Positions 350 to 33,758 of a stretch of 35,018 nt of DNA are shown here, piece after piece. The position numbers were made by a program, and so were the translations under genes. Each line of letters opens with the position of its first letter. Position 1 is the first letter of the stretch. Location of the stretch: contig CT868050.1 of assembly GCA_000165425.1 (NCBI GenBank), positions 186,001 through 221,018 on the forward strand, in the 5' to 3' direction. This DNA comes from Paramecium tetraurelia (lineage: Eukaryota). The notes under the pieces were generated by a model that worked only from the letters and a program-made list of their open reading frames with translations, searched no databases and was not told the origin of the DNA.

Positions 350-3020
350 TCATTATTTTAATAATATCAATTCCTTAATTTACTTTACAATGCCTTAAAC
401 TGCCAGACCATGCTCTTCCTGCTCTATCAATTGCTATAGAATGGAATTCTTAAACATGTCTTTAATTTTTATCGAGTCGGACTCTAATAGATAATATAGT
501 ATCTGTAACAAATGTTTGAGGTTCAACTGACTTTAATCCTTCTGAATCAAGAGTTCCAATAGTTATTTCCTAAACAATAGACTAAGTCCAAATTCTTTTG
601 GTAATACTTTAACTAGTGTTGGGTACATGGGAACAGTGTTATTTTTAAAATAAGCCACAAGAATGTCAATGTTTTTGCTTAGAGGGATGCGTTGAGTTTA
701 ATCTAATTCTATTAATTTAACAATTGTATCAAGTAACTTTGTGATATTTAGATTTGTTGTTAATAATCCAACATAAATGCTAATACCTCCATTTTCTTGT
801 AATTTTTATTTGCATCTTTCAGAAGATGTAGCTAATGAGCATAATATGCTAATAGCTGCCTTTTTCATAGAGATTTGGTTTTCTTATTCACTTGGCAATT
901 TAAATAATTCTAGCAATAAAGGAACGCCTTCATAAAGACACAATTCTTCTTATTTATCATGATTCAATTTGGTAAGATAAAATATAATTCTTAGAATATC
1001 TGCAATCATCGGCCCTTAACTTGGTAAGTCCTTCTTTAACAGGGTTAAGGCTCTAGGGATGATAGCGAATCCATCTAAATGTGGTTAAAGATTGGGTTCA
1101 GTGGAGAGATATCTAAATATTTTTATTGTTTTTAGAAGTGCTTATTCCTAATTTTAATTAAGGAAAGTGGCCAATCTGGTAATAACTTCTTTTTCGCAAA
1201 GGGATTGTTTAACTATTTTGTCGTCGCACTTTGCTAAGATCACTAAAATATTCAATGATTTGATCATTAAATTAACATCTATATTTTGAATTTGTTCAGC
1301 AATAAGCACTAGTCTATAAGTGATGAATTTGCTAGTTAAGAGTCTACTAAGATTTCTTTAACTTATAGTATTAAGATCGTATAGTAATATGATAGTGTCT
1401 AATGCTAAACCAATTAAGTCAATGTTATCAGAGATGTCTGATGTGTCAATTAATTCTAGGAGGTTATCCAATCCTCCAATTGAGAGAAGGTATCCTTCTT
1501 TGAAGTAGGTTAACTATCCCAAAAAATAGGCAGCTTCAACTCTTAGTTCTTTATGAAATTCAGATGAAGTGATTTATTGATAAAAGTTAGCTGCTCCCAA
1601 ATAACATGACAATTCTAATAATTAAGGATTCTAATCAACAACAATATTTATTAATTCAAATATCAATTTTAAAATTTATAAAGATTAGGATTAATCTTAT
1701 GAATTATTTTCACAATATAGTGGCATATATTTCTCAATAATTTCCAATAATGATGTTAAACCAGTATGAATGAAATATTCTTTACATTTATCATTGGGAA
1801 TAGTATCTTTTAACTATTCTAAAATTTTAATAATCTAAGAATTATCACTTTGTTCTGTTAATTAAGTGATTAGTTCATTAATTTCTCTCATACTTTTGCC
1901 ATCTTCATTCTAGCCCCAAAATCCATTTTACTTAATTTGATGACTGGTTCTTAATTTAAGCTATCTTAGTGAATCCAATTAAGAATCTCTCACAGCACTG
2001 CTTTTATCTATTTTTCTAGGTGATTAACATTGAACTAATTATGGTACTTACTCAATGAATGAGTCTGTAATAAATGTTCCGAAATTGGATTGATCTACAA
2101 TGTGATTTCTTATAGTATTTGTTACTTCTTCAGGTAGATTGGGGCCTTGAACTATATGCCAACTTTTAGTGATCCATGGATGTTTGAGCATAGTAGTGGC
2201 ATCATCCCTTAAAGTGGGATCCTTTTGGAAACATTGGATTAGAAAGTCTCTGCATTCGTTAGAGATTCCTTCAGGCAAGGGAGGACAATCTCTTTGGACT
2301 ATTTAAAACATTGCAGCATATTATAATCTATCGAAATAGGGTGGATTGCCTGTCAATAACTCTATGACTGTGCATCCAAGTGACCAGATATCACAGGATG
2401 TAGATAGATGTCCTGACATTTCTATTACTTCAGGTGCCATCCAATATGGAGTACCAACTATGTTATTACTTTGTGTCGTATCTTCAGATAAAGTTGTGGC
2501 CACTCCAAAGTCTGCCAATTTAACAGTACTTGATTATCTTATGATTAAAATTACCCATCTTTGGGAGTCAAAATATTGGCACCCTTTATGTCTCTATGGA
2601 CAATTCCTTATTAATGCAAATACTCCAAGCCTTTCAATACTTGTTTAACATAAATGGCTACCAAAGACTCTGGAAATGATCCAAACTTCTTTAGAATGCT
2701 TGCCAAACTGCCACTTTCGATGTATTCAAGAATGATATTTAAAAATTGATCAGTCTCTATACAATCGATGTATTTGACAATATTTTCATGTTTCAACTTC
2801 TTCAATAGATAGATTTCTTGTTGTAATGCTTTATACTGATCTTCTTTCAGTGTGGCTCTTGACACTTGCTTTATTGCCACAAGTGTTCCCTCTATTATTG
2901 TGTGTTTATTACTAATTCCAAATTCAATCCTTTGTACACAGTACCAATCGAACCTCTACCTAGCAAATCGCCTAGCTAGTAATTACCGATCTTCTTCATC
3001 TATCTAGACAATTGAGACAT
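350..3020 (-). CDS. STE-group Ser/Thr kinase, Cdc15/Cdc7(SIN)/MAP3K-epsilon-like, with N-terminal kinase domain and C-terminal helical (ARM-like) region
   Basis: [49 protein letters not shown] and GTPYWMAPE motifs. Short introns near 2891-2912 and 2529-2554. A long Leu-rich helical C-terminus ends ...[16 protein letters not shown] (TGA at 352-350). Confidence 0.9.
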
Positions 3021-3203
3021 TTAATATTATTTAATATATATATATATATAGAAGTGATTGTAAAGAAGCGTGCAGATACAAGATGCATGTAAGCTATCTT
3101 ATATTGAATAATGCCATTACATTAATGTGGCAAACGTAAAAAGGGGCACAAATATTGTAGATTGTGTGTCCAGAGTGTTATTTGCCATTTATTAATTTAA
3201 TTA

Positions 3204-3575
3204 ATGAATTTAATCCCTAACGAGCGCCAGGCTATAGAGCAGCTGAGAGAGGTCAGTGAATTGGAGCCCACTCAATTGAATTGGGGGAAAGACATACTGC
3301 TCTTCAATAGGAATCCCAATAGAAAGCGACGATCCACTACCAGAGAAGGGGAACAGAGGTAACGTCTGCCCCAAGTGAATAAGGTTCCCCTTAAGATGCC
3401 GCTACAGGAGATCTCGCTTAATCAAGACCAATCTACTCCCAATTATTCCAAACTACCACCCCTAATCAAATCAATCAAACCTCATACTGCGAAACCCAAT
3501 TACAATGGCATAATTCTTGGTGCCAATTTTGCACATTTTGAAAGACGGATACTTAAAAAAATCAATTTATCTTGA
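3204..3575 (+). CDS. Hypothetical basic protein (123 aa)
   Basis: ATG3204 MNLIPNERQAIEQLREVSELEP... reads through one TAA(Gln) into the track ORF 3375-3575 and ends at TGA. Confidence 0.7.
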
Positions 3576-3639: not shown

Positions 3640-6387
3640 ATGCAGCCACAATAATTCTTGGATTTGGTTTAATGTGCATTCTTCGAGAGCAATACACAAA
3701 GAAGTTAGGCAGAATAAGTACTACTCAAGTACAAGGATGAATGTCCTGATGAATTCATGGTCTATTGTGCCTAAGCATTCTCTAATCGCGGCATTTAGAA
3801 TCGCATTAGAATAGCTTGCAGTACTTTGGTAAAACGACTAGTGGGATTGATTGTAATAGTCAACTTCTATTGTAGCATCCTCCATCTAATTAAATTACTT
3901 GGTTGGCCTGTTCTTAACAAACTAAGAATGATGTGAAAATGAAGTTCATGGAATAGTTGATTGACCCTGAAAATGAAATTAGAAGATCTGCAGCCAATGT
4001 GAGTCTATCAAACTATCTATTAGACTATAAGTGAAATATGTGCCATAGAATTACCAAGACAAGAATGGCCAGATCTAATTGAACGATTGACAACAAACTC
4101 AAAGCACACTGATATCTTGATTAAGGTGTCAGCCATCATGACATTAGGTTACATTTGCGAAGCATTAGTACGAATCCTAATATCATTTAGAAAACTCATC
4201 AATCTTCAGGTATCTCTAAGAAAGACTCGGAAGTCATATTAATGGGAATTTGTGTAGGAATGGATTTGAATGAGTAGACTTTAGAAATTAGATTGACTGC
4301 AATAAAAGCCTTACAGGATTCATTATATTTTATGAACAACTTGTTTAAATAATAAGTATTTGCACTCACATTTAATTTAGGAAATCTTTTCTTTCGTGAA
4401 GAATTTGATATTGTCCAATGCTGTATGCAACATTCAGGAGATTAAACACAAAGCACTTTAATGTTTGATTGATTTTGTTAAGCAACTCTTCACATATTTA
4501 CCTGTCTACATAAATGAATTATTTTAAGCAACTTAGGCTTCATTTGAAAATCAAGGAGAAATTTCAATAGCAGCAATTGAAATCTGGAATACTATTTGTG
4601 CAGAAATGAAAGAAGAAATCATGTAGAATGGCAATCAATCGACACCTGAAAGTAATGCAGTAGATTGTTGTGTATAATTTTTTAAGAACAATTATGAAGG
4701 ATTCTTACTGCCATTCATGAGAAACCTCTTATTGGATTGTGGAGATGTGGATGATGAATATCAAGGATTGTCAGTCCCTGATTCATCTTGCAAAGGATTA
4801 GCATTTATAATTGATTTTGCTGGAGTCAAAACCTACGAATTAGTCAAAAACTTCATTTAAAACACTCTCTCACACTAGCAATGGGAATACAGAAAAGCCA
4901 GCGTTATGGCATTTGGTGCTTTGGCTGAAGTTCAAACCAAAGAAATAGAAATGCTCATTAAATCTGCTCTGAGTAATCTCTTCTCTTGTTTGGTTGATCA
5001 GAATTTCAAAGTCAAGAAGGCCACAGCTCAAACCTTGAGTAGAGTGGCTGAAAATTACCCATAATGCTTCCATGAACATGATTAAGCTAACCACATGTTG
5101 GCAACCTTATTGGATTAATTGAATAACAAAATACCGATTGTTTAACATCTGATATGGGTCTTTGTTTACCTCACAGAACAACTACAACTCTTTTCCATGA
5201 GTATATTTAACAGAGAGAAATTTAACATATTGTAACATTTGGCAAGCACATCAGTAAGAGCAGATATCAAGAATTCAGAAATAGCAATAATTGACACAGC
5301 TTTCATGGCTATTCTCAATATTATCTATAGTATCACTGATACAAAATCATGCAATGATTACTTGATTGAATTCTTTTAATAAATCTAACGATTAGAGAGT
5401 GGTACATAAGTACCTGTTGAAATTAAATTTCATTTAGAGATGGGATTGATGAGTGCCATGCATGGTTGTGTAGTGAGATTGGATGACTCAACAACTCCAG
5501 AATCTGTATTTGAATCAATCATGAAAACTCTATCAAATGTAGACTCGAGAGTTAAGAATGACTATTTTTATGTACTCTCAGGAATAGCATATGCTTTTAA
5601 AAAGAAATTATCCAAATATTCGTCTTAATTAATAGCGGAACTAAATAAACCCCTTTCTGAACCAGATGACATGGAGAGCTTTAAGACAGCATTGTTCTGT
5701 TTAGCAGATATTGCAAGAGCTATGGAAGAAGAGTTTGTGCCTTATATGAAGATTTTAAATTATTTCTTTGGCTTGATTTAGGTATAAAAAGTATACTAAC
5801 AATTAGAATCCCAATTTTAATAGAGAATTAAAATTATAAGTGTATAATGCCATTGCAGACATAATTTTAGGATTGAAGGATAAGTCTTTCCAATTTTTAG
5901 GTGATCTGAAAGAGATTCTCAAACTAGGATTTGCTGCGAGTATGGATTTGACTAAGAGTTAATAGAATGTGGATTAAGATTATGCAGAGAGATTAAAAGA
6001 GACGATGACTTCATTCTATACTTGTATTTTACACGCTTATTGTGAACCTAATGTGCCTAACTTTGATTTGAGAGACACAGTAGATTGGTTCATAATATTT
6101 TGTACTGATATGTGCAATCTAAAACTAAAACCCACAATTGTATAGACATATAAATTAAATGATAGGAATATGTTAGATTGACTTTGTGTTGTATATTTGA
6201 TTGTTCGCATTTCTTTTAGACAGTGCCAGAGATGAAAATAAAGTTGAAAGACTTCATTACAAGTGATTTTGTGATTGAATTGATCAGGAAGATGAGTCAA
6301 TACAATGACAAAGATTATCAGGAATGTGTTTCATTTGCCAAATAGTTACTAAATGACGTTTATGGATTTTAATTGAAATTGTATTGA
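3640..6387 (+). CDS. Importin beta (karyopherin beta-1-like) HEAT-repeat protein
   Basis: IBN_N-like start (RSQAEQVL), ICAIELPRQEWPDLI, AIMTLGYICE, AAIEIWNTICAE and WEYRKASVMAFGALAE match importin-beta motifs. Several ~22-27 nt introns (e.g. ~3853-3874, ~4356-4380, ~5782-5806). TGA at 6385-6387. Confidence 0.9.
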
Positions 6388-6908: not shown

Positions 6909-7888
6909 TCATTGCTTCTTTGAATTTGGAAAATACCATTCCTTACCAGGTGTGTAACCCAAAGTAGAATACAACTCTTTGCGTGTTTACATACTATAAA
7001 TCACTATATTTAATAATTTTACTTTTCAACTGAATTAACCTAAGACTCATCCTTCTTCAATTACTTCAAAAATCCATCAATAGCTTTACTGGCAATTCTT
7101 AATGTGGAAACAGGATAGATAACACAATTATAACCCATCTACTCAAATTCTTTTAATGAAATGTACGGAGTCTTTCCAAATTCTGTCATGTTAGCCAATA
7201 AGTAAATGTTTGGATTCTTCGACTTCAATTCCTTTGCCACAACAGCCATTTCTTCTTTTGTGTGTAATCCTTCAGGGAATATCATATCAGCTCCTGCATC
7301 CATATATGCCTTGCTTCTTTTGATACATTCATCCAATCCATGTGTTCCTCTAGCATCAGTACGTGCTATATTGGGGTTAAATCGATGCTTTACCACAAAT
7401 GACAAACTCTCCTCCACTGCATTAGATACTTGCATTTTTGGCTATTTAGATCTTCTTCTCCATAACATCAGATGGAACCAATTCCTTTCCATCCAAATGT
7501 CCACAACGTTTTGGGAACACCTAATCCTCAATATGAAGACCTGAAGCTCCATGTATGAAATATTCCCATACTGTTTTAGAACACATTTCTCCTTCTCCGA
7601 ATCCTGTGTCTGCATCTGCCAGAATCGGTAATCCTGAAGCTAGAGCCACATCCTTGATTGTCTTACAGAATCCATCCAAAGTTACCATACTTAAATACTA
7701 ATAACTAAATTGTACCCAATATCTGGAACTCCACTGGATGCAGTCACAGCAGCACCTGAAATGTACAGGGCCTCAAAACCATTATCTGCACATTGTCTAC
7801 CAGCCATACCATTGTATGCTCCTGGCATCATTAGACATTTCTAAGCTAATAGCTTTCTAAACAATGAGCAATTTTATTTAAATAACAT
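6909..7888 (-). CDS. prpB: 2-methylisocitrate lyase (PrpB-like; isocitrate lyase/PEP mutase family)
   Basis: PGAYN, YISGAA...GVPDIG, DADTGFG, HIEDQVFPKRCGHLDGK, ARTDA, AGADMIFPE and NMTEFGKTP motifs. Introns near ~7690-7715, 7366-7393 and ~6995-7022. Confidence 0.88.
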
Positions 7889-8028
7889 AATAATTTATTA
7901 TTCCAAATGAATTACCACTTATAAATTATAAAATATAATAAATTCTTCTTTAATTTTATATTAATCAATAACTTCTCCCCTAATAACATAATCTATATAA
8001 CGCTTTTTATTAATATTTAATTAACTTA

Positions 8029-8292
8029 ATGGGCTGTTCTGAATCTGTTCCCTTTAAATCATCTCTCACACAAAAATCACAATCAACCATAGATACACCC
8101 TCAACACTTGCTAAATATGTCGTTCCTCTCTCCTCATCTGCCTCCTTTGATAATTTTGACACTTACGAACTCGATGATTAAACCACATCCCATTATTATG
8201 ATGAAATTCAACAGAAAGTCATCACCATACCAAAATTACATTCCATAGATAAATCGATCATTTTTTAAAGAAGAAAGATGCTCAGCTTTTGA
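8029..8292 (+). CDS. Small hypothetical protein (87 aa), putatively N-acylated (MGCS)
   Basis: MGCSESVPFKSSLTQ...IPKLHSIDKSIIFQRRKMLSF*, open in code 6. Confidence 0.7.
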
Positions 8293-13999: not shown

Positions 14000-16400
14000 C
14001 AGAATAATCATCAAGTTATAAAAAAATTATTATCATTCATAAATTTTTTAATTCACTATCAATTAAGATATTAATCCAAGTTTCATCTTTATTTTAATAA
14101 TAAGTCCTCATAATATGTTTAGATTTATAATGCTTTGAGGAATCCAATTTCATTATCCTATAAAATACTCTTTTCCTTTAGAATTTAAACTAAATGAAAC
14201 CATTTTCTGTGTTATATGTGGTTGAAAAAATCTATAAGTAGAATATCTGAATTATTCTTTTTATCCATTGAGTTTATTGGTCTGATTAAAGATAATATTT
14301 TAAGTTGTATTCCTCCCTTTTTAACAAATCCATTTTATTTATTTGAGACGTTTTCAATTAGAAATTAATCTATTTTATCATTAAGTCTAAACTCTGTAAA
14401 TTTATATAATGCACTAAATATAATAATAGGTCTCAATTGAGTATATTTGGAATTAATCTTGCTTCAAAAGTTTATTGTTAATATCCAAAGTACTTTGAAA
14501 TCATAAATTTTGAAACAATTGACATTTCCTGCATTTTCTTATTGCTCTATAAGAGATTTCATCCACTTTTATAACGTATCCATTCGACATGAGTTTTTAT
14601 AATTCTCAAACTGATATAATATTTAACTTTGGTAGCCTTGGTACCATAATTATATTATATGGAATCCTTTGAGATATGATATCCATCTATCTATAACATT
14701 GTCAAAGTACTAATCTTCCACTTATTAGATCATCATTCTGATTCAAGCAAAATTTCATTATTCCTCCTTCTTTTGAATTTGGATTTATTATTCTAATTTA
14801 TTTTAGCATTCTGTAGACCTATTTTTTATCTTTGCTTTCGAAATTTTAGGCTAAATATTGCATCATATCTCCTATAGTCTATTTCTTATATTTATTACTG
14901 GTATCCTTATTCTTTTTAAGTTATGACTCTTTTTTCCTTTAATTAATCTTAATATATTTATAAAAGTTTGTAAAATTATTCATCTTACTTTCCTCCTCTC
15001 TATAAAGTTCATATACTTTATTTATATCAGATTAAATTATATATTCTTTGTGATTATTAGTTTATTTAATATCAACTGTTAAAATTATTTTTGCATGATC
15101 AGATGTGTCTCTATGTAAGAGCTTATATGATTAACCAAATCTTGGAAATATATTTGTAGTTCATCAGTTTATAATTATTGTCATCTTTTCTTCTAAATAT
15201 TATATCATGGTCTTTAAGGACTTATAGAAAATTGTTAATACTGCCTTTCTATTATTGAAGTCACCACAAATAACAATTATCTAATTTCCTTTTAAGTTTA
15301 ATACATTGATATTTAGAGGTTATGTTATTAGAACAAAAACATTTAAATATTCCAAACACAACTCCTCCTGTCTTTATGTTTTTCCATAGTATTAATAATA
15401 TGTATAATTTGGACTATCATTTCATTTTCTTCCTTCTTGTTTCTTATAAACAAACAATGTGGCATTCTTCTTTCGTTATTTATTATTAAGTTTCATCTTT
15501 CATAGCACTTACATTCCAACTTAATATTTTTATTGTATGTTTAGTATGAATGCGGTTCCCATCAAATTTCATTTCATTCTCAATGTTTTAGGGACGGTAA
15601 ATTTGCCCCAGAATGTCGTGAGTACAACCCTGGCTCACTCATACTTATTCATCATTCCATCTATTAAAATATTACCTCTTTTATTAATATTCTTGATAAA
15701 TATTAAGATTATTATTATTTCTAATAAAAGGTCGATTTCCTTAGTTTTGCCTATTAGGATTTTGGTAGTTCTTTAAGGTCTCTATTATTAGTGATAATTC
15801 TGTTTATATTTATTCCTTTTGGCACTGACTCTTTTAATTGTTATCTCTTTGGATGATTTCTATATTTATTTAAAAAATTTGAAAAAAATTTTTTCATAGC
15901 AATTCATTCTGTATGAGCGNNNNNNNNNNNNNNNNNNNNNNNNNNNNNNNNNNNNNNNNNNNNNNNNNNNNNNNNNNNNNNNNNNNNNNNNNNNNNNNNN
16001 NNNNNNNNNNNNNNNNNNNNNNNNNNNNNNNNNNNNNNNNNNNNNNNNNNNNNNNNNNNNNNNNNNNNNGACCTAGAACATTCAAAGATATTCTTTCTTT
16101 TTATATGTCCATAAATTTATCTAGGTTAATTATATTTCTTGTCTGTTCAAGTGTAATTCTTGTGTAATTATTGGTATTATTTCACTTCTTCTTTCAATTT
16201 CGCTTCAATTTATTGATCTGGCTCGGCAACATGACTGCTATTTTCTTATTCTTCTTCTTCATCCTGAATTTCTCTTATTATTATACCTATGTTTTCATAT
16301 ATGTCTTATATTTCCTCTATTTTTTTCTCAGCCAGTTAATATTTCTCAATTTATTGTATTTATCAAACAATGAATATTATGAAGGGAACGTTATAAATGA
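14000..16400 (-). mobile_element. Decayed non-LTR retrotransposon (LINE-like): APE endonuclease plus reverse transcriptase, with upstream coiled-coil ORF1-like remnants; spans the N gap
   Basis: Minus-strand motifs in order. APE: IKILSWNV (~15530), HIVCLQETR (~15445), GGV, IIVICGDFN (~15265), TSDH (~15100). RT: FEARLIP, LRPIII (~14425), QNGF (~14335), LLIDF (~14235), degenerate IPQS (~14140). Many frameshifts and TGA stops; boundaries are approximate. Confidence 0.8.
15920..16069. other. Assembly gap (150 N)
   Basis: Run of n. Confidence 0.99.
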
Positions 16401-17147
16401 TTAAATGTAATTCTTAATTTTCATAAAGCGTACTCTGAATATGACAAATTTTCGAAAAAGGACCAAATTCAACAACAAATAATTTCTAATATGTATTTAA
16501 GTCTCCTCATAATTTTTCATGAAGTAATCAAAATTTATGTCAAATCAACCTGAGGAGAACTAATAAATGAGCGATAAATGAGATACAAGAGAATAGATTT
16601 TAGTTGAAGTAGATGATGTAGCTTAGGATTGCATATATATGGGATTTTAATTTCACTCCAAAGGTTGATGCATCTACTATATCTCAACATCGTCATGATC
16701 TCAATAATGGAATACCCAAGAATTTTAATTATAAAAGAAGATTCAATAAAATCTTCTATTTGCTTTAGTTGTAAATGTATAAAATCCTCACTACTTTATT
16801 TATTTACTTAAAATTTATAAATGCCAATTAATTTGATTATAATGTACTTTTCATTATAAGAATTCTACTATTTAAATAAATACAGAGTCTATGCTTTTAA
16901 AATGCAGTTGTTATAATGAATAACTAAATATTAGATTTATTGGAGTGTCATTTTTCAACTAGTGAATAATATTTTATATGGAATCAGTTCTAATTTAGTA
17001 TTTTAACTTTGTAGAATTGGTTATTTAAAAATAAAAATTTAAGGCTTCCTATTTGCATTTAATCATGTCCTCAGATAGTTTATTTATCATTTTTCATTAT
17101 TATTAAAATAACAAGATTATATAAATTAATTTATAATATATATTATA

Positions 17148-19736
17148 ATGCTTGAATATTTTAATAAATGGAAGAAGATAGATGACCTTCCTCCAATTGC
17201 TGATGAAATTAATTTCCAAGAAAATCAAAATATTTAACTATGTCAATAAAATATGAATCAAGTAATTAAGTAATAAGGCTAGGAGGAAAACGAAAATAAT
17301 TTAATATTTCTTGATCTAAAGGAGTTTGGAATTTAGGAATTACAAACAGAAGTCATAGAAATGTCTTAAATCATTGAAGAGTTCATGCAAAGGATATTCT
17401 AAAAATATTTGACATCTATAGATACCAATAATATTTATATGATAAATGAGGGAGGACTATTGGATAAAAAACACTAACTTAATTTTTATCATATTAAAAA
17501 CAATTCAATCATTAAATTCATAAAAATGAAATAGACCTATCCTGAAAAATGGATTATCATTATTAAAACTTTGACTGGAAAAACCTTAACGTTAGAAATA
17601 AATAATAAAGATATGTCTATTGAATAGTTGAAGATGTTAATACAAAATAGAGAAGGTATACCACCCGATTAATAAAGATTGATATTTGAAGGGATACTCT
17701 TATAAGATGGAAAAATGCTATGGGAATATAACATAGGACCTGAAAGTACTCTGTATCTAACCTTACGTTTAAGAGGTGGTTGTTTTCCTGGAAATGCTCC
17801 AATAAAACTTTTTAATGGAAGAACAAAAATAATAAAAGAGATTGAATTAGGTGATATTGTTATGTGTTATGATTTTGAATAAAAATAGTTTAAGTCGTCA
17901 ATAGTAGTTTTTAAGAAAATATCATCAGAAAAATAATAATTAATAGAAATTATAAGTGAGAATGGAAGTATTATTTGTACTCCTAATCATCCTATTTATA
18001 CTTAAACAGGATGGAAAGCGTTAGAACCACATCCAAATTTTTTTATTGAGAAATTAACTGTTACTGATCTTATATTTGATTCTAATGAAAGATTAGTAAA
18101 CATCCTCTAAATTAATTAACTAAAAGACACAGAAATTGTTTATAATATTACAACTTCATATCCAAATAACTTCATTGCTTTTGACTTCTTAGTACACAAT
18201 ATGAATAAAATATTCATTTAAATTAATGGGTTTAACGAAGAATTTGAAATACTACCTTATTTTTTAGTTTAAAATTTAAAAGTTATTATTGAAAAGAAAA
18301 AAGGAATACCTATGATTGATTAATAATTATATTATTAAGGAATACTAATGAAAGATCATTTTTCATTAGAAGATTATAAGCTATTACAAAATGGGACTGA
18401 ACCAGATCTGTTAATATTAAAAGTAATAAAATAATCTTAGAAATTGTAATATGAAATTAATTAGAATACAAATAGTGAAACATGTGTTTCAATAATAACA
18501 CATAATTCTTAATATCAATTATAAATTAAGAAGAATCAAAAAATAGGAAAGATAAAAAAAATATTAGAGTTTGTAGAATCTAGAGAATAAATAGAAAGAT
18601 CATTTATATTATGTAATGGAAAACCTTTACGGTCTAAAAATATAGACGAAAATAAAACAGATCTAGCAAATGTTTAAAGTATTTTCTTAATTGATTAACA
18701 ATCTGGAGGGATTTCTATGAGATTTACTTAAGAGATAAATGATCAGTAAGTTTAGACTGCATCTTAGCTAAAAGATTCTTTGTAGTGGTTAGGTAATCCA
18801 TAAATTAATGAATTTATTTAAGCAAATCTAGAAGAGATTAATGGGAATTAATAAAAAAAATATTATTATCAATAAATCCCCCTTCCCTGTATGATTGCAG
18901 TTAGATTATATACGTGTGACTTAATCTATAGAAAATTAAATAATGATTTAAGAACATCTGATTATAGAAGATGGAAGTAATACTTAAGATATTTAATGGA
19001 AGGTTTTCGACTTATGAAATATTATAAAGGAGTTGCATATCGTGGAATTAAAGATTATTAAAATACTACACTATATAAAAAGGGAAAGATTGTTTAATGG
19101 AGTGAAGTTACCAGTGTTTCATTAAATTATAAAATTGCATAACATTTCAGTAATAATAAAGGAATGATATTTAATATTTAACTAATAAGTGGCAAAGATA
19201 TATCCAAAATTTCAATTTATGAAGGAGAATAAGAATTAATAATGTATCCCTTTTCAACTTTTGTTGTTGATGAAGTTCAAATTAAACCAAATTAACCACA
19301 TATTGTAACAATGAGAGAATTACCTTTACCTAGATCGCATTGTGTGTTATTATGGGTCGATGACAATCCCGAAAACAATTTTAACTATGCTTACGAAGTA
19401 GAAAGATAAAACAACAATATTTCAGTTATATTTTGTACATCCACAAAAGATGCTATACTAATAATCTCAAAATATAACTGGATGATATATTTATCGGAAT
19501 CTTAATTTAGAGTTATTAGTGATATGGTAAGAATAGAAGATGGTAAACTGAATTATAATGCAGGGATAGAATTATTAATTCATTTATATTAAAAAATGAA
19601 ATACAAAAATAGAACTATCATATTTTGTGGAGATCAAAAGAGAGCTTAGGAAGAGTGCAGAAGTAGAAATATACAAGGAAATTTTGAAATTACTAATAAT
19701 GAACATGTTTTGAAATAGTTTCTTTAATTTAATTGA
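17148..19736 (+). CDS. BUBL-like polyprotein (862 aa): Ubl - ubiquitin-like(LRLRGG) - Hint/BIL - Ubl - Ubl(SGG) - ADP-ribosyltransferase (R-S-E) - receiver-like domain
   Basis: Single intronless frame in code 6 from ATG17148 (MLEYFNKWKK) to TGA19734-19736. Ub domain 17550-17780 (IKTLTGKT...EGIPPDQQRLIF...LRLRGG). Hint 17781-18200 (CFPGNAPI...CTPNHPIY...VYNI...FLVHN). ART motifs YRG 19038-19046, SVS 19113-19121 and EQE 19227-19235. Receiver-like LLWVDDNPENN from ~19347. Confidence 0.93.
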
Positions 19737-19775
19737 TAAATTATAATCATTTATTATTATTAGGATAAAGAATAA

Positions 19776-21313
19776 TCATTCAATATTAACTAATTAAGTT
19801 CGCTTTTTCTTAGAATAATTAAAATGTAGTTATGGCATTATATTATTATTAAATGGTTAAAGAATTTCTTCATTAAGTTCAAGATTGATACCTAAATTTA
19901 ATATTTATATAAAATAATACAATACTATTCTGCTTTTATTTCTTTGCATATGAGAAGCAAATAATTCTTAATTTTAAGAGTGAATTAATTTAGTTTCCTA
20001 ATATTAAAAGTTCCTTGTATTTTAATGATCTTCAATTAATTTTCCATAGATTCACCTTTAATAATGATTAATTCACTTGTTGAACTATCTAGAATACAAG
20101 CTAATAATAAATTAAATATTTTTGGAATTGTGTTTAAAAATATATCTGAGCCAACTAGTTAAATTTTTGATTTTGGATTACAAAAAGCTTAAATTTTAGA
20201 TACAGATTTCTTTAAACTTAAAATTTTTGATATCATTTATTTATTCCACATTTAAGTAATTTTATCTTACAGTTATATCTTATTAGCTAAATTATGGAAC
20301 TGATTATAATTAAAAGGTATATCTTCCTTTATTATTTTAATAAAAACAGTTAATAATTTTAGATATAATTGACTAACTTTATTGGCTTCCTAATTTTAAA
20401 TATGTAATTTTGATTAACTGGTTTGAATTAGGATAGTTGGTTGATTTCCAAAAAAGATAGAAAAATCAACTTAAATTAATTATTTATCAAACTTAACATT
20501 TAATGAATCATTCACAATTTCCAAATATTTTTAAGAGAATTCTTATAATTTATAAAATAAACACTGTTCTAAGGAGATATTGTCTACTTTGGCTTCTCTT
20601 AAAAAATTCATGACCTCAACTTATGATTGAATGGTTGGTGAAAATGTTGATGTTATACTTTAAAATTACAATTTTTCAACTTGATAATTGATTAAGATAA
20701 ACTTTTAATTGTGAAGAATCTATTTTAATATATTTTCCCATCTTTAATCCATTTTAGTTAACAGAAATTATGATCTTATTGCTTTATTATAAAAATAGAC
20801 AATAATAATTAATGATAAATTAGCTCCAAAGCCCAATATTATTGTAGTGATGTCAATACTAGGACTGTTTTATACTAGATGAAGTATTCTAAGTGAGTAC
20901 AATAAAATAATCGTCATTGTTGAATCTAAAAATTCAATTCCTAATATATTTATTATGTTAATGGCCATTTAATGTGCTCCTCTAAAATACATCGTTGGAG
21001 TATCTAAAAGTGGATCAAAGAAGATCACATAAATAGAAAAACAAATATTAATGTAAATAATTAATGCACGTTAGTGATATACGTTTTCGATATTAAAGAA
21101 TTTTGAAAGAGCTGTGAAAGCTATCATTCCAAGTGAAGGGTAAATGACTGCATAATTTTACATTATTAGAGCAATAGTTAGCTTGATGGACTAAAGCACA
21201 GTAAAAAATAGTAAGAATATTTTTAAATGAGTTCTTCTTCTTGGAGATTAATGCTCAAGTTAGTATTTCTATTCAATTGATTGATCTAGAAATTTTAATG
21301 TTACCTTATGCAT
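19776..21313 (-). CDS. Multi-pass membrane protein resembling the N-terminal sensor region of ciliate histidine kinases, without recognisable catalytic motifs
   Basis: MHKVTLKFLDQSIEQKYQ... then several hydrophobic helices and a soluble region. One intron at ~19892-19920 gives ...KKRTQLVNIE*. No H-box or G-boxes seen. Confidence 0.7.
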
Positions 21314-23323
21314 TCCTAATTATAAATATTTATTAAATTGTTCAATCAATTAGAAATTGTGAAATAAAATCAATTTAGTGATTTTAATTAAAATGATATA
21401 TTCATTTTGATATAGCTATATATGATATTCACAAAAAGGTTTTTGTTTTTTGTATTTGTCTATTTTATTTTCATAAGTTAATCTAAGAATTTAATTATTT
21501 ATTTTGCCTTAATTTCATCTAATGATTGTGAATAATTATATATAAATAATTTCGAAAACTTTTTAGTGTTTATTGAATATTTATTAGATTACATATTTCA
21601 TAATAATTGAATTGACCAAATGAAAACATATTACACAATTAAGATGTCAACTTTATGTTAGGCCTTTAGGGAGCTAAATTACAGACAAGTAAGTGTATCA
21701 TTTACCCTTCTATCATTTAAAAAAGTATCCACTTTTCCTTGCACTATGGATTTAATTTAATGAGAGATCAGCTTTCTTAATTTATGCAAGGTTCTCTTTT
21801 ATTCAAAAGAATATGATAATTATTAAAGAATAACAATCTTGAGTGCTTTCTTCTCTATTTATCAAAATAATTTATCTAAATTATGATTACCCACCCATTT
21901 TATACAAATTATACCTAAATTTGAGACTATCTTGCATTCAGATTTACAAGCATAGTTCCAAATTCCAAAATTTTCTTTTAGGCTACACTAATTAGAAAAT
22001 TTTACAAAATTAAAAAGTTGGAAACAGCCTCTTGATTTTGAATATATTTATTTTGGAAACAGCATCCAAAATACAGAAAAACCACAATTATAGTGAATCA
22101 TAAATTAGATACTAAACAAAGCCCTTATAAAATTATATAAAAATTAATTTCATAAATTACATATTTTGGTCCTTTATATAAGTTCTTAACTTTATTGAAG
22201 ATTAGGCTTATTCAATTCTTGCGAAGCATAGTCACAAAAAATAATATCTTTAAGGAAGAGGCGACCTAATTTTTAAACAGTTATTACCAGTATTTTTGAT
22301 GAAATACTGTATTTGAATTAGATTTGCTTTTAGTTAATATTACTATAAATTTATATTCATTAAAAGCAGATAAAATAAAAGGTCTAATTAATTGTTTCTC
22401 TTTTGACTTCTTAAAATTTTCCTGTTTTTTTAACAACTGAATTACATTTGGATTAAAATGAATTTTGATTATTAAATAATAATTATAAAAAATATCGCCT
22501 TTCCAAACGAAACTAAACCTTAACTCAAATATTACATTAAACTAAGACTTGAAAGAGCCAGAGGCTTTCATAAGTAATATTTAGTTTTTAAATTCTTGTT
22601 TTCTTTTCTTATAATCATAAATAAAAAAGAAGAAAAGCACAATTTACTGAAGAGTAGAAAATGAAATTAGAATTAAGAACTGCAGATAAGTACTTAAAAG
22701 CTTATCAAAATTAAATCCTAAAGATACAGGACTAATGTAAAACCCGGAGCTATTTTGCATCTAAGTTAATATTAATTGGGGAAATAATATTAAGGATAAA
22801 ATCAAATTAGTAATTAAATAGGATTAAAAATACAATAAAAGTATTTTAAGTAGGGATTAAAACTACATTTTCATAGTTAAGTATTTATAAATTCAAACAT
22901 TAAAAGCCATAATTAAAAAAAAAGTAAACGATCTGTTTTTTCACAAAAATTATATTGAAATATAAAATTGCATAACGTTTCAGTAGTAATATAGGATTGG
23001 TATCTAAAGTTCAACTCATAGTTTCTTATTATTGTTTCCCTCTCAATTATAGTATGAAATTTATCTGAAATCTGATCCATTTACAAATTTTTATGCTTGA
23101 ATCTTTTTTTGAAAATCACTCTAATTGTTAAGACCATTTATTAGAGTTAATGTAGGATTCCTGTTTGAATAGGTATCAAATACGTAATAATCTGTTATTA
23201 TTGATATGCGTGTGACCATTTTTGTACTATATTAATCAAGAATGATAATAAAAGTAATAAATTCAACATCTGAATAATTAGTTATCATATATAACTATTT
23301 TCTAATTGGAAATAAAAGATAAA

Positions 23324-30715: not shown

Positions 30716-33158
30716 TCAAATAAACAATAGTTTAAGATCTTAGGAGGTTGGTGGCTTTTACAGAATTTTATCGGCACCAGCGCTAAGGCAATTTTGTTGA
30801 GTCTTCATATCATTAAAAGCAGTCAACATATAGATTTTAGTAGTTGGACTTATCCGTTTGATTTCATTAATGCATTATAACCCATTCATTCCTGGCATAT
30901 TGAAATCTAAAAATACAACGTCATAACGCTGTTTCAAAACCATATCTATTGCTATTTGCCCTCCAAAAGCAGTATCTACCTTATAGATTCCTATTTTTGA
31001 TAACTATATTTTTAATAACATATTATTAAACGACTCATCATCTACGATTAAGACTTATAATTTTTCTTTTTTATTAATTTTTTTATGGAATGGAGCAAGT
31101 TGGTTTGTACTAATCATATTCTTATATGGAGAATGCACTGATACATCATAATCTATGGAATCGACACTAAACTAATCTTATTATTAGTGATGCTATTATT
31201 TATCATAATTTTTATAAATGACGAATTAAAAAGTTGAACCAACTCCAACTTATGATTCTAGATAAATGTACTACAAAGGTCCTATGTACCCACACAGCTA
31301 CTTGCAGATGATCAATCCCAAACCAACACCATTTCTAACTTTTTATACTAATACTCTACTTGTTTGTGTTGTTATCATCATCATAAGTGGCAAAGTTTCT
31401 GAAAAGCCGTCTTTAAATTTCTTGGGTGATTCCACTTCCGCTGTCATAAACTGTACATAGAATTAACCTTTATTGATTTCGAATTAGAGGATCAACATCA
31501 ACTACTGATTTATTAATATTAATTTAATCCTTAACATTAATGCAAAATTTGCAAATATCCATAGGTTCATCAGAAAAGATAATGGATATTTTTCCTTTTG
31601 ATGTGAATTTGATGGCATTTGATAGTAAATTAAAGAGGACTTACTTTATTCTCAATGGATCATTATTTAAAATTTAAGTAGATTTTAGTATAGAGACAAT
31701 CTCTAGCTGTAGGTTCTTCTTTTGTGTTTATATACGAAATACATTTTTTACATCTTGAATCAATTATAAAATATCAAACTCACTAATGGCTAGCTTTAAC
31801 TTCTATTATTTAATTTATGAGAAATCTTATAAATCATTAACAAAGGATTGTAGTATTTATACGTTTGTTTAGCACATCTCTAAATAGTTGCAACAAGATT
31901 GTATTTTCTCAAGTATTTCTGGGTTAGTTTTCATTTCAGACAATTCATATAAACTATCTTATACTAAAGTTATCATAGATTAAACAACACCTATTGGATT
32001 CTTCAAATCATGACTAACAGTAGCCAAAACACTGTCTTTATATTGATCTAGCTTTTCAAGCTAAGATATTTTGATTCTATCTGTTATTTCAATCAAAGAC
32101 ACTACAAAACTCTTTTAGTATTTCCAAATACATGGAGATACTAAAATATCATAAGTTTAATGATGATTATTATACATTAATCCCGTTAATTTTAACGGCA
32201 GACTTTCTTGAAGTTCTTTGTCTTAAGAGTTACTCATATATTAATAGAGAATGTAATTTAAAGACTAAGGATTGTCAATCATATTGATTTACTCTCCTGT
32301 TGCTTTTAAATTATTTAAAATGAGTTCTTGAGTTAAATTAACTTTTAAATTGCATAAAGAAATATTGGATTCATTACAATTGATAATCTAAATTTGATTA
32401 ATTTTTTAGTAAATGCTTTCAATAGTAGCAAACTCCTTGTTACAAGCCTAATTGACAAATAGGACTTCAAATTAATCTTGCATATTTTAATCTGAATTCA
32501 ACTTAATAACAAACAAGTTCTATTGTAGGCTATGGTTAAGCACTACCTCTTAATATGAAAGATCATGACTGAAATTAAATTTCTCAAAAAAACAGATCAA
32601 TTTCCTTCTCTCTCTCAAATAAATACTAATGGATATTGCAAGAATAAATATCCATTCAAAAGGTAATAGGATCCAATCAAAAATATTATCAAAATACAAA
32701 TAAGTAAATTACATTATTGTAAAGTAACATATTAGGTATTTCTTGTTGTTTAAACTTTGAGTAACATACATATAATATAATTACACATATCCGTTAATCA
32801 TGAATTAATCAACATACAAACTTAAATAGATCAAAATTGTTACAACATGAATGATTTTCCAATAATCATTACATGTTGAGTTCCTTTAAATACTCCATAT
32901 CTATAGCAGACTTGACAATGGAAAAACTATCAGGATTTATGATTCAACAGACTAATTGTCTTTAAATATTGCTGAAATAGTCAAAGCTAATTCCAAAAAC
33001 ATTTTAAAGGTTTCTATGAAAATCATTGGGCATTTATTTAACTTTTTCTGGAAAGTTTTAAAACTGTTCTGAACATCCTAATCTCGGAAGTTTAGAGTTG
33101 CATTCAAAAATGCATTTTCAGGTTAGAGATTTCTTGATATTTACAATAAATACTTCAT
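30716..33158 (-). CDS. Membrane hybrid histidine kinase (TM sensor - HisKA - HATPase_c - receiver)
   Basis: H-box LATVSHDLKNPI, N-box NLLSNAIKFT, G1 DSGSGI, G2 GVGLGLIICKQL and GVGSTF. Receiver motifs LIVDDESFN, VFLDFNMPGMNG and KPP. TGA at 30718-30716. Confidence 0.92.
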
Positions 33159-33516
33159 CTGAGAGTGATTATATATTACTTAATTATAAATTATTTTTAT
33201 TTCATGTAATACCATAACTTTGAAGATATATTTACGTAATGCTTATTTGTTCAATATTAATCAATTTGAACTCCAAAAAATTTATAAATTTCATCATCAT
33301 TTCTATCAAATAAAAATGTTTGCTCTTTTTTTTGCTTCACTATTTTGCAGCATATCTTAACTTATTCTGGATAACGCCAGAAAGAGTCGATAATTTGGAG
33401 ATTTGAATTTATCAGTTTAGAATTTTATAATGGGTAATCTTTTGAATCATATATTTTTTAATCAAATTATCTAAAACTTTGTAATAAGTTGATGATTATC
33501 GAAGCCTAATTTCAAA

Positions 33517-33608: not shown

Positions 33609-33758
33609 NNNNNNNNNNNNNNNNNNNNNNNNNNNNNNNNNNNNNNNNNNNNNNNNNNNNNNNNNNNNNNNNNNNNNNNNNNNNNNNNNNNNNNNNNNNN
33701 NNNNNNNNNNNNNNNNNNNNNNNNNNNNNNNNNNNNNNNNNNNNNNNNNNNNNNNNNN
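33609..33758. other. Assembly gap (150 N)
   Basis: Run of n. Confidence 0.99.

Follow-up and report, generated by a model that had tools for sequence, protein, structure and literature searches.

A Paramecium tetraurelia BUBL gene joining ubiquitin-like, intein-like and ADP-ribosyltransferase domains to a predicted receiver-like fold

What is encoded by a long ciliate reading frame in which ubiquitin-like (Ubl) domains, a bacterial-intein-like (BIL) domain of the Hint type, an ADP-ribosyltransferase (ART) and a domain resembling the receivers of two-component systems appear to follow one another, and does such a frame belong to a gene at all? The question is posed by positions 17148..19736 (+) of a stretch of Paramecium tetraurelia DNA, 35,018 nucleotides (nt) in length (contig CT868050.1 of assembly GCA_000165425.1, positions 186,001 to 221,018 of the forward strand), which is called the window below. 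A first-pass annotation, made from the letters of the window alone, had read the frame as a self-processing polyprotein hidden from the track of open reading frames, had proposed a toxin/defence-like or signalling role for it, and had left open whether its architecture was new. The analysis described here finds that the gene is real, transcribed and already annotated, and its sequence places it, as the representative from the P. tetraurelia macronucleus, among the BUBL genes of ciliates, which are polyubiquitin-like genes that contain BIL domains. The coding frame and its parts, with the evidence for each in brackets, are:

17148..19736 (+), whole coding frame, 862 codons plus TGA in the ciliate code (public protein match; oligo-dT reads)
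17295..17525 (+), degenerate N-terminal Ubl, residues 50-126, with no Gly-Gly (GG) end (sub-threshold PF00240; strand order in the model)
17550..17780 (+), ubiquitin domain, residues 135-211, ending LRLRGG (Pfam; alignment to human ubiquitin repeats)
17781..18200 (+), BIL/Hint domain, residues 212-351, with Cys212 first, T278-x-x-H281 within and H350-N351 last, followed by Met352 (Pfam Hint and Vint; match to 6y75_A)
18201..18422 (+), Ubl, residues 352-425, counterpart of T. thermophila ubl5, with no GG end (PF00240; collinear with the Tetrahymena protein P0013)
18423..18440 (+), 18-nt segment GTA...TAG, residues 426-431 (VIKQSQ), treated as an intron by the public model
18477..18710 (+), candidate Ubl-like domain, residues 444-521, ending QSGG directly before the ART (strand and helix order in the model; invariant GG)
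18711..19319 (+), predicted arginine-type ART, residues 522-724, with a helical lead-in and R632, S656-x-S658 and E694-x-E696 (PF01129; alignment to Vis)
19320..19733 (+), domain with a predicted CheY-like receiver fold, residues 725-862, with D738 D739, T766, D792, R795, E797, A805 G806, C827 and T849 (AlphaFold2 model, Foldseek, conservation)

Read in the ciliate nuclear code (NCBI table 6), the interval translates, as it had in the first reading, into one 862-codon frame closed by a TGA stop. It is the first-ATG open reading frame of its frame and contains 58 TAA/TAG codons, all of which are read as Gln. Its own stop is the only TGA within it, compared with 19 and 41 in the other two plus-strand frames, and at the TGA frequency of the window (0.0213 per position) runs of this length would be expected about 6e-4 times over both strands. 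The window is AT-rich, with a GC content of 0.21-0.35, and long spurious frames are common where TGA is the sole stop; one of 310 amino acids lies antisense to the gene at 18214-19146. The gene proved to be hidden only from the bacterial code: a public macronuclear protein model of P. tetraurelia (P0002, 856 amino acids), which carries the UniRef name NAD(P)(+)--arginine ADP-ribosyltransferase, is 100% identical to the translation apart from six omitted residues. These six are encoded by the 18-nt segment, which is below the usual size of a Paramecium intron. The segment is in frame, has no TGA and falls in a low-confidence linker of the structural model (predicted local distance difference test, pLDDT, below 50 at residues 428-443), and six residues are retained at this position in all four Paramecium orthologues.

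Transcription was followed in three oligo-dT RNA runs bearing the same species label, which yielded 46, 64 and 30 reads from the gene (140 in total). All of them lie within 17184-19724, with zero reads in 16821-17183 and 19725-20300, and all share a single orientation, their first mates mapping to the minus strand; for the majority of stranded libraries this denotes RNA from the plus strand. No splice joint occurs among the reads of the gene in these runs, and no read covers the 18-nt segment or any other part of 18152-18514. This pattern fits a low-level transcript matching the 862-codon frame, and the first-pass annotation, which had made its proposal depend on the gene being transcribed, is borne out on this point.

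Domains were called with Pfam profiles against the curated cut-offs, with the whole protein and sub-ranges scanned separately, and five profile-supported domains were found in order within the 862 residues. Ubiquitin (PF00240) was matched at residues 137-209 (E 5.7e-31 in the whole-protein scan); each repeat of human polyubiquitin scores about 76-77 bits against residues 137-212, in which LRLRGG (206-211) is immediately followed by Cys212, and the alignment retains ubiquitin Arg42, Arg72 and Arg74 within residues 135-211. A further PF00240 match lies after the BIL (E 3.4e-10 on residues 352-435). The N-terminal Ubl stays below threshold on residues 1-136 (E 0.0035; 17.5 bits, the cut-off being 25.4), and residues 50-126 have the order beta-beta-alpha-beta-beta-beta in the model at a pLDDT of about 73-84. 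Residues 436-525 gave no Pfam match, and the Ubl-like assignment of 444-521 is based on the strand and helix order of the model (pLDDT 55-76) together with the invariant GG. A whole-protein AlphaFold model built from a 13-sequence alignment (pLDDT 75.7) contains beta-grasp-like units at 50-126, 135-206, 353-426 and, less confidently, 444-515, along with an all-beta Hint domain (212-351), the ART (521-724) and a (beta-alpha)5 domain (732-859). Every item of the domain list first proposed is thus present, with weaker evidence for the first and fourth Ubl than for the remaining domains. Pfam matches of TSP_NTD and MHC_II_alpha to the N-terminus were dismissed as chance.

A search with residues 540-862 identified 13 proteins among 982 candidates. 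Orthologues from P. pentaurelia, P. sonneborni and P. octaurelia are 67-76% identical in the searched part, and proteins from several Tetrahymena species are 38-40% identical. The comparison that places the gene is with T. thermophila P0013, an 1142-amino acid protein named 'polyubiquitin' and bearing the same UniRef name as P0002, which BLASTP aligns at 31% identity over 722 columns (E 7e-110), residues 140-843 being collinear with P0013 415-1121. Because P0013 contains both the solved BIL2 sequence (6TMM/6Y75) and the solved ubl5 (5n9v, E 6e-47), it can be equated with the BUBL1 protein of PMC8616854, and the BUBL class to which the gene had been assigned at first sight is confirmed by this alignment. 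The two proteins share the order Ub(GG)/Cys-BIL-HisAsn/Met-Ubl-Ubl(GG)-ART-receiver-like, collinear to the C-terminus, as well as the GG/Cys junction, the block-B Thr-x-x-His, the His-Asn/Met junction and the catalytic residues. They differ in that the Paramecium protein has one BIL whereas BUBL1 has two, a degenerate Ubl replaces the N-terminal Ubl-Ubl-BIL1 block of BUBL1, and Ser and Asn stand in place of the BIL2 zinc ligands H48 and H125. Judged from the aligned sequences, the ART and receiver-like pairing is common to BUBL1 and its paralogues, so the exact architecture is not unique to this gene.

The BIL is recognized by the Hint profile (PF01079, E 1.9e-9, 37.9 bits against a cut-off of 29.7) and by Vint (PF14623, E 6.7e-8, 32.9 bits against 27). 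In the whole-protein scan, Intein_splicing remained below its cut-off (22.9 bits against 35.8), as did PT-HINT (E 0.047, 14.4 bits against 27.7). The domain runs for 140 amino acids from Cys212 to Asn351, and its match to 6y75_A, the solved BIL2 of T. thermophila, is end to end, spanning 144 of 152 residues (E 2.7e-13). Its catalytic residues are kept among the relatives (Cys212 in 12/12, T278 in 12/13, H281 in 13/13, H350 in 12/13 and N351 in 13/13), and G210 and G211 of the preceding GGC junction are kept in all 12 relatives that have the region. The residue after Asn351 (+1) is M, V or L among the relatives, and the C-terminal junction of the BIL therefore has no splicing nucleophile. In its Hint profile match, the Cys with which it begins, the TxxH block and the His-Asn with which it ends, it shares features of the A-type BIL domains and the Hint superfamily as described in PMC7765530. 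Unlike bacterial BIL domains, which occur in variable surface or toxin proteins, the Paramecium BIL sits between independently folded Ubl domains in a eukaryote. In T. thermophila, BIL2 of BUBL1 is reported to conjugate the upstream Ubl to lysine through an isopeptide bond without ATP (PMC8616854).

The ART also has a profile match above its cut-off (PF01129, E 6e-11 and 42.5 bits against a cut-off of 22.3 on residues 526-740; E 1.2e-9 with the whole protein). Aligned with the Vis toxin (4xzj), its YRG, TSVS and EQE stretches are in register with the R, S-x-S and E-x-E motifs, which places the motif residues at R632, S656/S658 and E694/E696, as expected for the R-S-E type first proposed. Conservation among the relatives is 11/13 for R632, 13/13 for S658 and 10/13 for ExE. 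These Arg, Ser-x-Ser and Glu-x-Glu motifs are shared with the R-S-E clade ARTs (PF01129; bacterial Vis and C3-like enzymes), from which the Paramecium ART differs in its fusion to ubiquitin modules and a receiver-like domain.

The ART is directly preceded by a second GG, which had been proposed as a further processing site. G520-G521 is invariant in 13/13 relatives, and a GG lies 200-207 residues upstream of the receiver-like domain in 14/31 family proteins examined. This conservation fits a ubiquitin-protease site that would free the ART-receiver part, as in the ubiquitin-ribosomal fusions, which deubiquitinases cut at the GG junction. Like the known fusion precursors (ubiquitin-eL40, ubiquitin-eS31 and polyubiquitin), the protein has a putative ubiquitin-fold domain whose GG end directly precedes another protein; unlike them, the domain before the ART is not recognized by Pfam as ubiquitin, and its cleavage would be by analogy. 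A looser parallel is offered by the Legionella SidE family, whose ART domain ADP-ribosylates ubiquitin Arg42. In both systems an ART is physically coupled to ubiquitin and conjugation chemistry is independent of E1/E2, conditionally so on the Paramecium side, but no phosphodiesterase domain was found in the Paramecium protein by the Pfam scan, and ubiquitin as the ART target is unsupported.

The C-terminal domain is the best conserved part of the 13-sequence alignment. W736-V-D-D-N-P741, N744, F762-C763, T766, R788, R795, E797, N802, G806 and T849 are invariant in 13/13 proteins, and D792 is present in 12/13. An AlphaFold2 model of the domain from a 44-sequence alignment is confident (pLDDT 95.3). 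Foldseek returned 14 matches at E<=1e-3 against the PDB, 13 of them named receivers, response regulators or sensor kinases, with HemR (4q7e) as the best (E 2.8e-4, template-modeling score 0.60), and in VIA-align about 45 of 50 rows are receivers, headed by the PorX receiver (7pv7; Z 12.7, root-mean-square deviation 2.5 A over 113 residues). By their position in the predicted strands, D738 and D739 follow a strand at 732-737 and D792 ends a strand at 787-792. Across the family these acidic positions are kept in 36/37 (D738), 34/37 (D739) and 39/44 (D792), and the position after strand 4, where receivers conserve Thr or Ser, is Cys in 32/44 and Thr in 9/44. The (beta-alpha)5 fold, the Asp-Asp after strand 1, the Asp after strand 3 and the Cys/Thr after strand 4 are thus shared with CheY-like receivers such as PorX (7pv7), HemR (4q7e) and Sln1 (8phx). 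The Paramecium domain differs from these in lacking the strand-5 lysine, in an extra hairpin after strand 3, in residues of its own (Arg795 in 44/44, Ala805-Gly806 in 44/44, Thr766 in 43/43 and Glu797 in 41/44) and in usually following an ART.

Among the relatives, 11/44 match Response_reg at E<=1 and 7 of 40 scanned at E<=0.01; only P0140, which carries the family's own invariant residues, is above the cut-off (37.9 bits against 30.2). In the models the domain has the receiver fold without being a member of PF00072, and it is probably a divergent branch of the receiver superfamily. The label 'receiver-like' is used here because a receiver fold is combined with a weak sequence link to receivers; the receiver-like domain first proposed is thus upheld as a confident predicted fold. 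Matches of Glycos_transf_1 (E 0.016) and DUF7034 (0.11) to the domain were dismissed as chance Pfam matches. In two metagenome-derived BUBL-like proteins from one 58-kb contig (P0007 and P0009), the ART arginine is replaced by Phe/Leu and the ExE is lost, and the invariant residues of the receiver-like domain are retained; conservation of this domain thus extends to proteins with a seemingly inactive ART.

The receiver-like domain also occurs outside the ciliates. A HMMER search with its 138 residues found 191 protein-cluster representatives at E<=1e-3, 70 of them at <=1e-10. Partner domains were scanned in 50 of the 150 listed matches, namely those of at least 220 amino acids among P0015-P0100. 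An ART recognized by Pfam and ending at the start of the receiver-like domain is present in 34 of the 50; 19 carry ubiquitin, 8 a Hint-type domain, and 9 no family. A protein kinase (P0037), a GTPase (P0040), MIB_HERC2 (P0027) and WW/C1 (P0068) also occur as partners. Four proteins with 6-10 matched stretches each (P0072, P0078, P0105 and P0122) were regarded as low-complexity noise, but the 50 scanned proteins include P0072 and P0078. Where members bear a species name, it is that of Paramecium sonneborni, of the foraminifer Nonionella stella or of the amoebozoan Mastigamoeba balamuthi. In N. stella (P0027) the ART and receiver-like pair occurs with MIB_HERC2 and ubiquitin, and in M. balamuthi (P0068) it is followed by C1 and WW domains. 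No description of a receiver-like domain on ciliate ARTs was found in open-access full texts, a scope that does not take in the original BUBL papers (Dassa 2004; Chiarini 2019/2021), and the ART-attached domain and its spread beyond ciliates may be undescribed.

How the two C-terminal domains might be arranged was explored by complex prediction. The ART (526-724) and the receiver-like domain, two halves of one chain folded without alignments, so that the value expresses model confidence only, scored 0.70 compared with 0.01 for the best control; in calibration, the 0.70 mark was reached by 51/78 solved complexes and 2/108 mismatched pairs (39/65 and 2/126 for eukaryotes). Contacts are at least 97% concordant between runs, with a partner pLDDT of at least 87. 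The predicted interface comprises ART residues 601-604, 641-650, 652, 702 and 704 and residues 3-52 of the receiver-like domain, the ART strand 641-650/652 and F702/704 lying against strand 2 and helix 2 of the latter and against the loop that immediately follows its Asp-Asp. The prediction supports a fixed two-domain unit in which an acidic pocket would lie near the ART ExE loop.

Taken with the likeness to BUBL1, these features lead to the reading we favour and consider likely, that the protein works as BUBL1 does. By analogy, the BIL would shift the Gly211-Cys212 peptide bond to a thioester and would thereby activate the C-terminus of the upstream ubiquitin, with the N-terminal Ubl still attached, without ATP or E1/E2 enzymes. 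An isopeptide conjugate could then form through attack by a lysine, either in the downstream Ubl or in a different protein, and cyclization of Asn351 would free the C-terminal part. A ubiquitin-specific protease might make a second cut behind G521 in the resulting Ubl-Ubl(GG)-ART-receiver piece, so that the ART is freed or positioned; from its residues, the ART would be an active, arginine-specific mono-ADP-ribosyltransferase. The receiver-like domain, predicted to pack by the ART ExE loop, would modulate the enzyme, gating it through phosphorylation of Asp792 or through a ligand of the acidic pocket. The autoprocessing at the Hint domain envisaged by the first-pass annotation survives in part: the catalytic residues are kept, but the studied homologue is reported to transfer its Ubl to lysine and not merely to excise itself.

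Several observations pull against this reading, in both halves of the protein. Processing, conjugation, ADP-ribosylation and phosphorylation are all extrapolated to this protein from its homologue and its residues, and the RNA cover of the gene is thin, at 140 reads with a gap over 18152-18514. BIL2 is reported to be activated by zinc through repositioning of His69 (PMC8616854), which a second paper repeats (PMC9200820). BIL2 was numbered from its first residue, and the numbering is valid because it brings His69 onto H281, the block-B histidine of the Paramecium protein. Counted in this way, Ser260 and Asn333 stand at the positions of the zinc ligands H48 and H125; His occupies these two columns in 4/13 and 5/13 aligned proteins, all from Tetrahymena. 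Since the ligands are not conserved, zinc activation may not apply to the Paramecium BIL, and zinc control may, from the alignment, be a Tetrahymena feature. The absence of the ligands would suit a plainer self-cleaving polyprotein, in which the BIL, as is mostly the case for bacterial A-type BIL domains, only hydrolyses both junctions and releases a GG-ended Ubl for the E1/E2/E3 route together with a free ART module, with no direct conjugation. In the same direction, PMC7765530 describes A-type BIL domains, which end in His-Asn, as cleaving without ligation of their flanks, and the Met at +1 is no nucleophile. The sole studied homologue, however, is reported to form isopeptide conjugates (PMC8616854), and the GG/C...HN/M junctions are identical in the Paramecium protein and BUBL1; cleavage without conjugation is accordingly rated as rather unlikely. 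Far less probable is a toxin or defence effector, in which the Hint domain would release the ART against prey, symbionts or competitors. Bacterial polymorphic toxins commonly contain R-S-E ARTs and Hint domains (PMC3482391), and the PT-HINT similarity, weak as it is, recalls them, but that match is below its cut-off, the architecture with ubiquitin modules is conserved over Paramecium and Tetrahymena, and the window holds no immunity-like partner among neighbours that are ordinary eukaryotic genes. The Pfam scan, to whose scope signal peptides do not belong, found no secretion or trafficking domains in the protein, and the toxin/defence role first entertained is left without support. Finally, the commonness of long spurious frames under a single stop codon, exemplified by the 310-amino acid antisense frame, might suggest a chance open frame or a decaying pseudogene. 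This is refuted, to the point of a negligible probability, by the rarity expected of such a run, the five profile-supported domains in order with intact catalytic residues, the orthologues in four other Paramecium species and the strand-consistent polyA reads confined to the frame.

Within the BUBL1-like reading, the narrower question of whether the C-terminal domain is a switch is much more evenly balanced. It might instead be a pseudo-receiver, an appendage fixed to the ART that has a structural or substrate-binding role, never becomes phosphorylated and uses its conserved Asp-Asp/Asp/Arg/Glu pocket to bind a ligand or substrate such as a nucleotide or a target side chain. The lysine that follows strand 5 in receivers is absent, Thr (T849) being found in 23/34 and K in none at this column, and the invariant R795, A805-G806 and T766 are not found in canonical receivers. 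Similarity to receivers at the sequence level is non-significant: residues 725-862 gave no Response_reg (PF00072) match at E<=10, the family profile reached a best E of 0.051 against PDB sequences, and hhalign of the family against the canonical receiver from the same window returned a probability of 4.8%. In the predicted complex, contact is made through the alpha1-beta2-alpha2 side and through the loop after the Asp-Asp, next to F702 and near the ExE loop. On the other side, the three acidic positions are kept across most of the family, one family member (P0140) exceeds the Pfam receiver cut-off, and Paramecium encodes hybrid histidine kinases, one of them in the same window. A pseudo-receiver therefore comes somewhat short of an even chance.

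The discovery of the gene is in itself ordinary, because an annotation of it already exists and its family has been described and, in part, structurally solved. To our knowledge, the BUBL proteins contain the only intein-like domain that activates ubiquitin without ATP. The Paramecium gene offers a shorter natural variant with a single BIL and without the Tetrahymena zinc ligands, which makes it a useful comparison for BIL chemistry. Should the receiver-like domain prove to function as a switch, it would connect ADP-ribosylation in eukaryotes with two-component-like signalling. A bolder proposal, which we regard as a long shot, is that the ART and receiver-like pair is a signalling cassette, as yet without a name, that is widespread in protists, its carriers being ciliates, a foraminifer, an amoebozoan and numerous eukaryote-like proteins from metagenomes. 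In this cassette a phosphoryl or ligand signal of the two-component type, received by a lysine-less and Arg-bearing receiver variant, would switch arginine ADP-ribosylation on or off; in BUBL proteins the target could be their own ubiquitin modules. If true, one gene would combine two E1/E2-independent ubiquitin routes, intein-type thioester transfer and ADP-ribosylation.

The surroundings of the gene, as recognized by Pfam, include the following frames:

353-3252 (-), split protein-kinase frames, with the Pkinase profile 23-137 in 2356-3252 and 130-263 in 353-2725
4336-5901 (+), importin-beta-like HEAT protein
7004-8065 (-), PEP-mutase-like frame
in the window, PAP2 and DENN domain frames
30719-31651 (-), canonical Response_reg receiver (E 9e-27), in a frame that overlaps the histidine kinase frame
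31206-33260 (-), hybrid histidine kinase with HisKA (1.2e-8) and HATPase_c (9.9e-10)

The hybrid histidine kinase establishes that two-component parts are present in P. tetraurelia. Its kinase and receiver frames (30719-33260, -), which are probably joined by a short intron or a frame change, lie about 11 kb downstream of the ART-receiver gene, and in a eukaryote this proximity is no evidence of a functional link between the two. The pattern of the split protein kinase at 353-3252 (-) is likewise consistent with a short intron, and its kinase part is followed by a long non-kinase region without a Pfam match. A 626-codon stop-to-stop frame at 19637-21514 (-) shares about 100 nt with the 3' end of the ART-receiver gene. 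It is without a Pfam match and without oligo-dT reads in 19725-20300, and it may be partly spurious, or silent in the sampled RNA. Two runs of exactly 150 N, at 15920-16069 (about 1.1 kb upstream of the gene) and at 33609-33758, may be assembly gaps.

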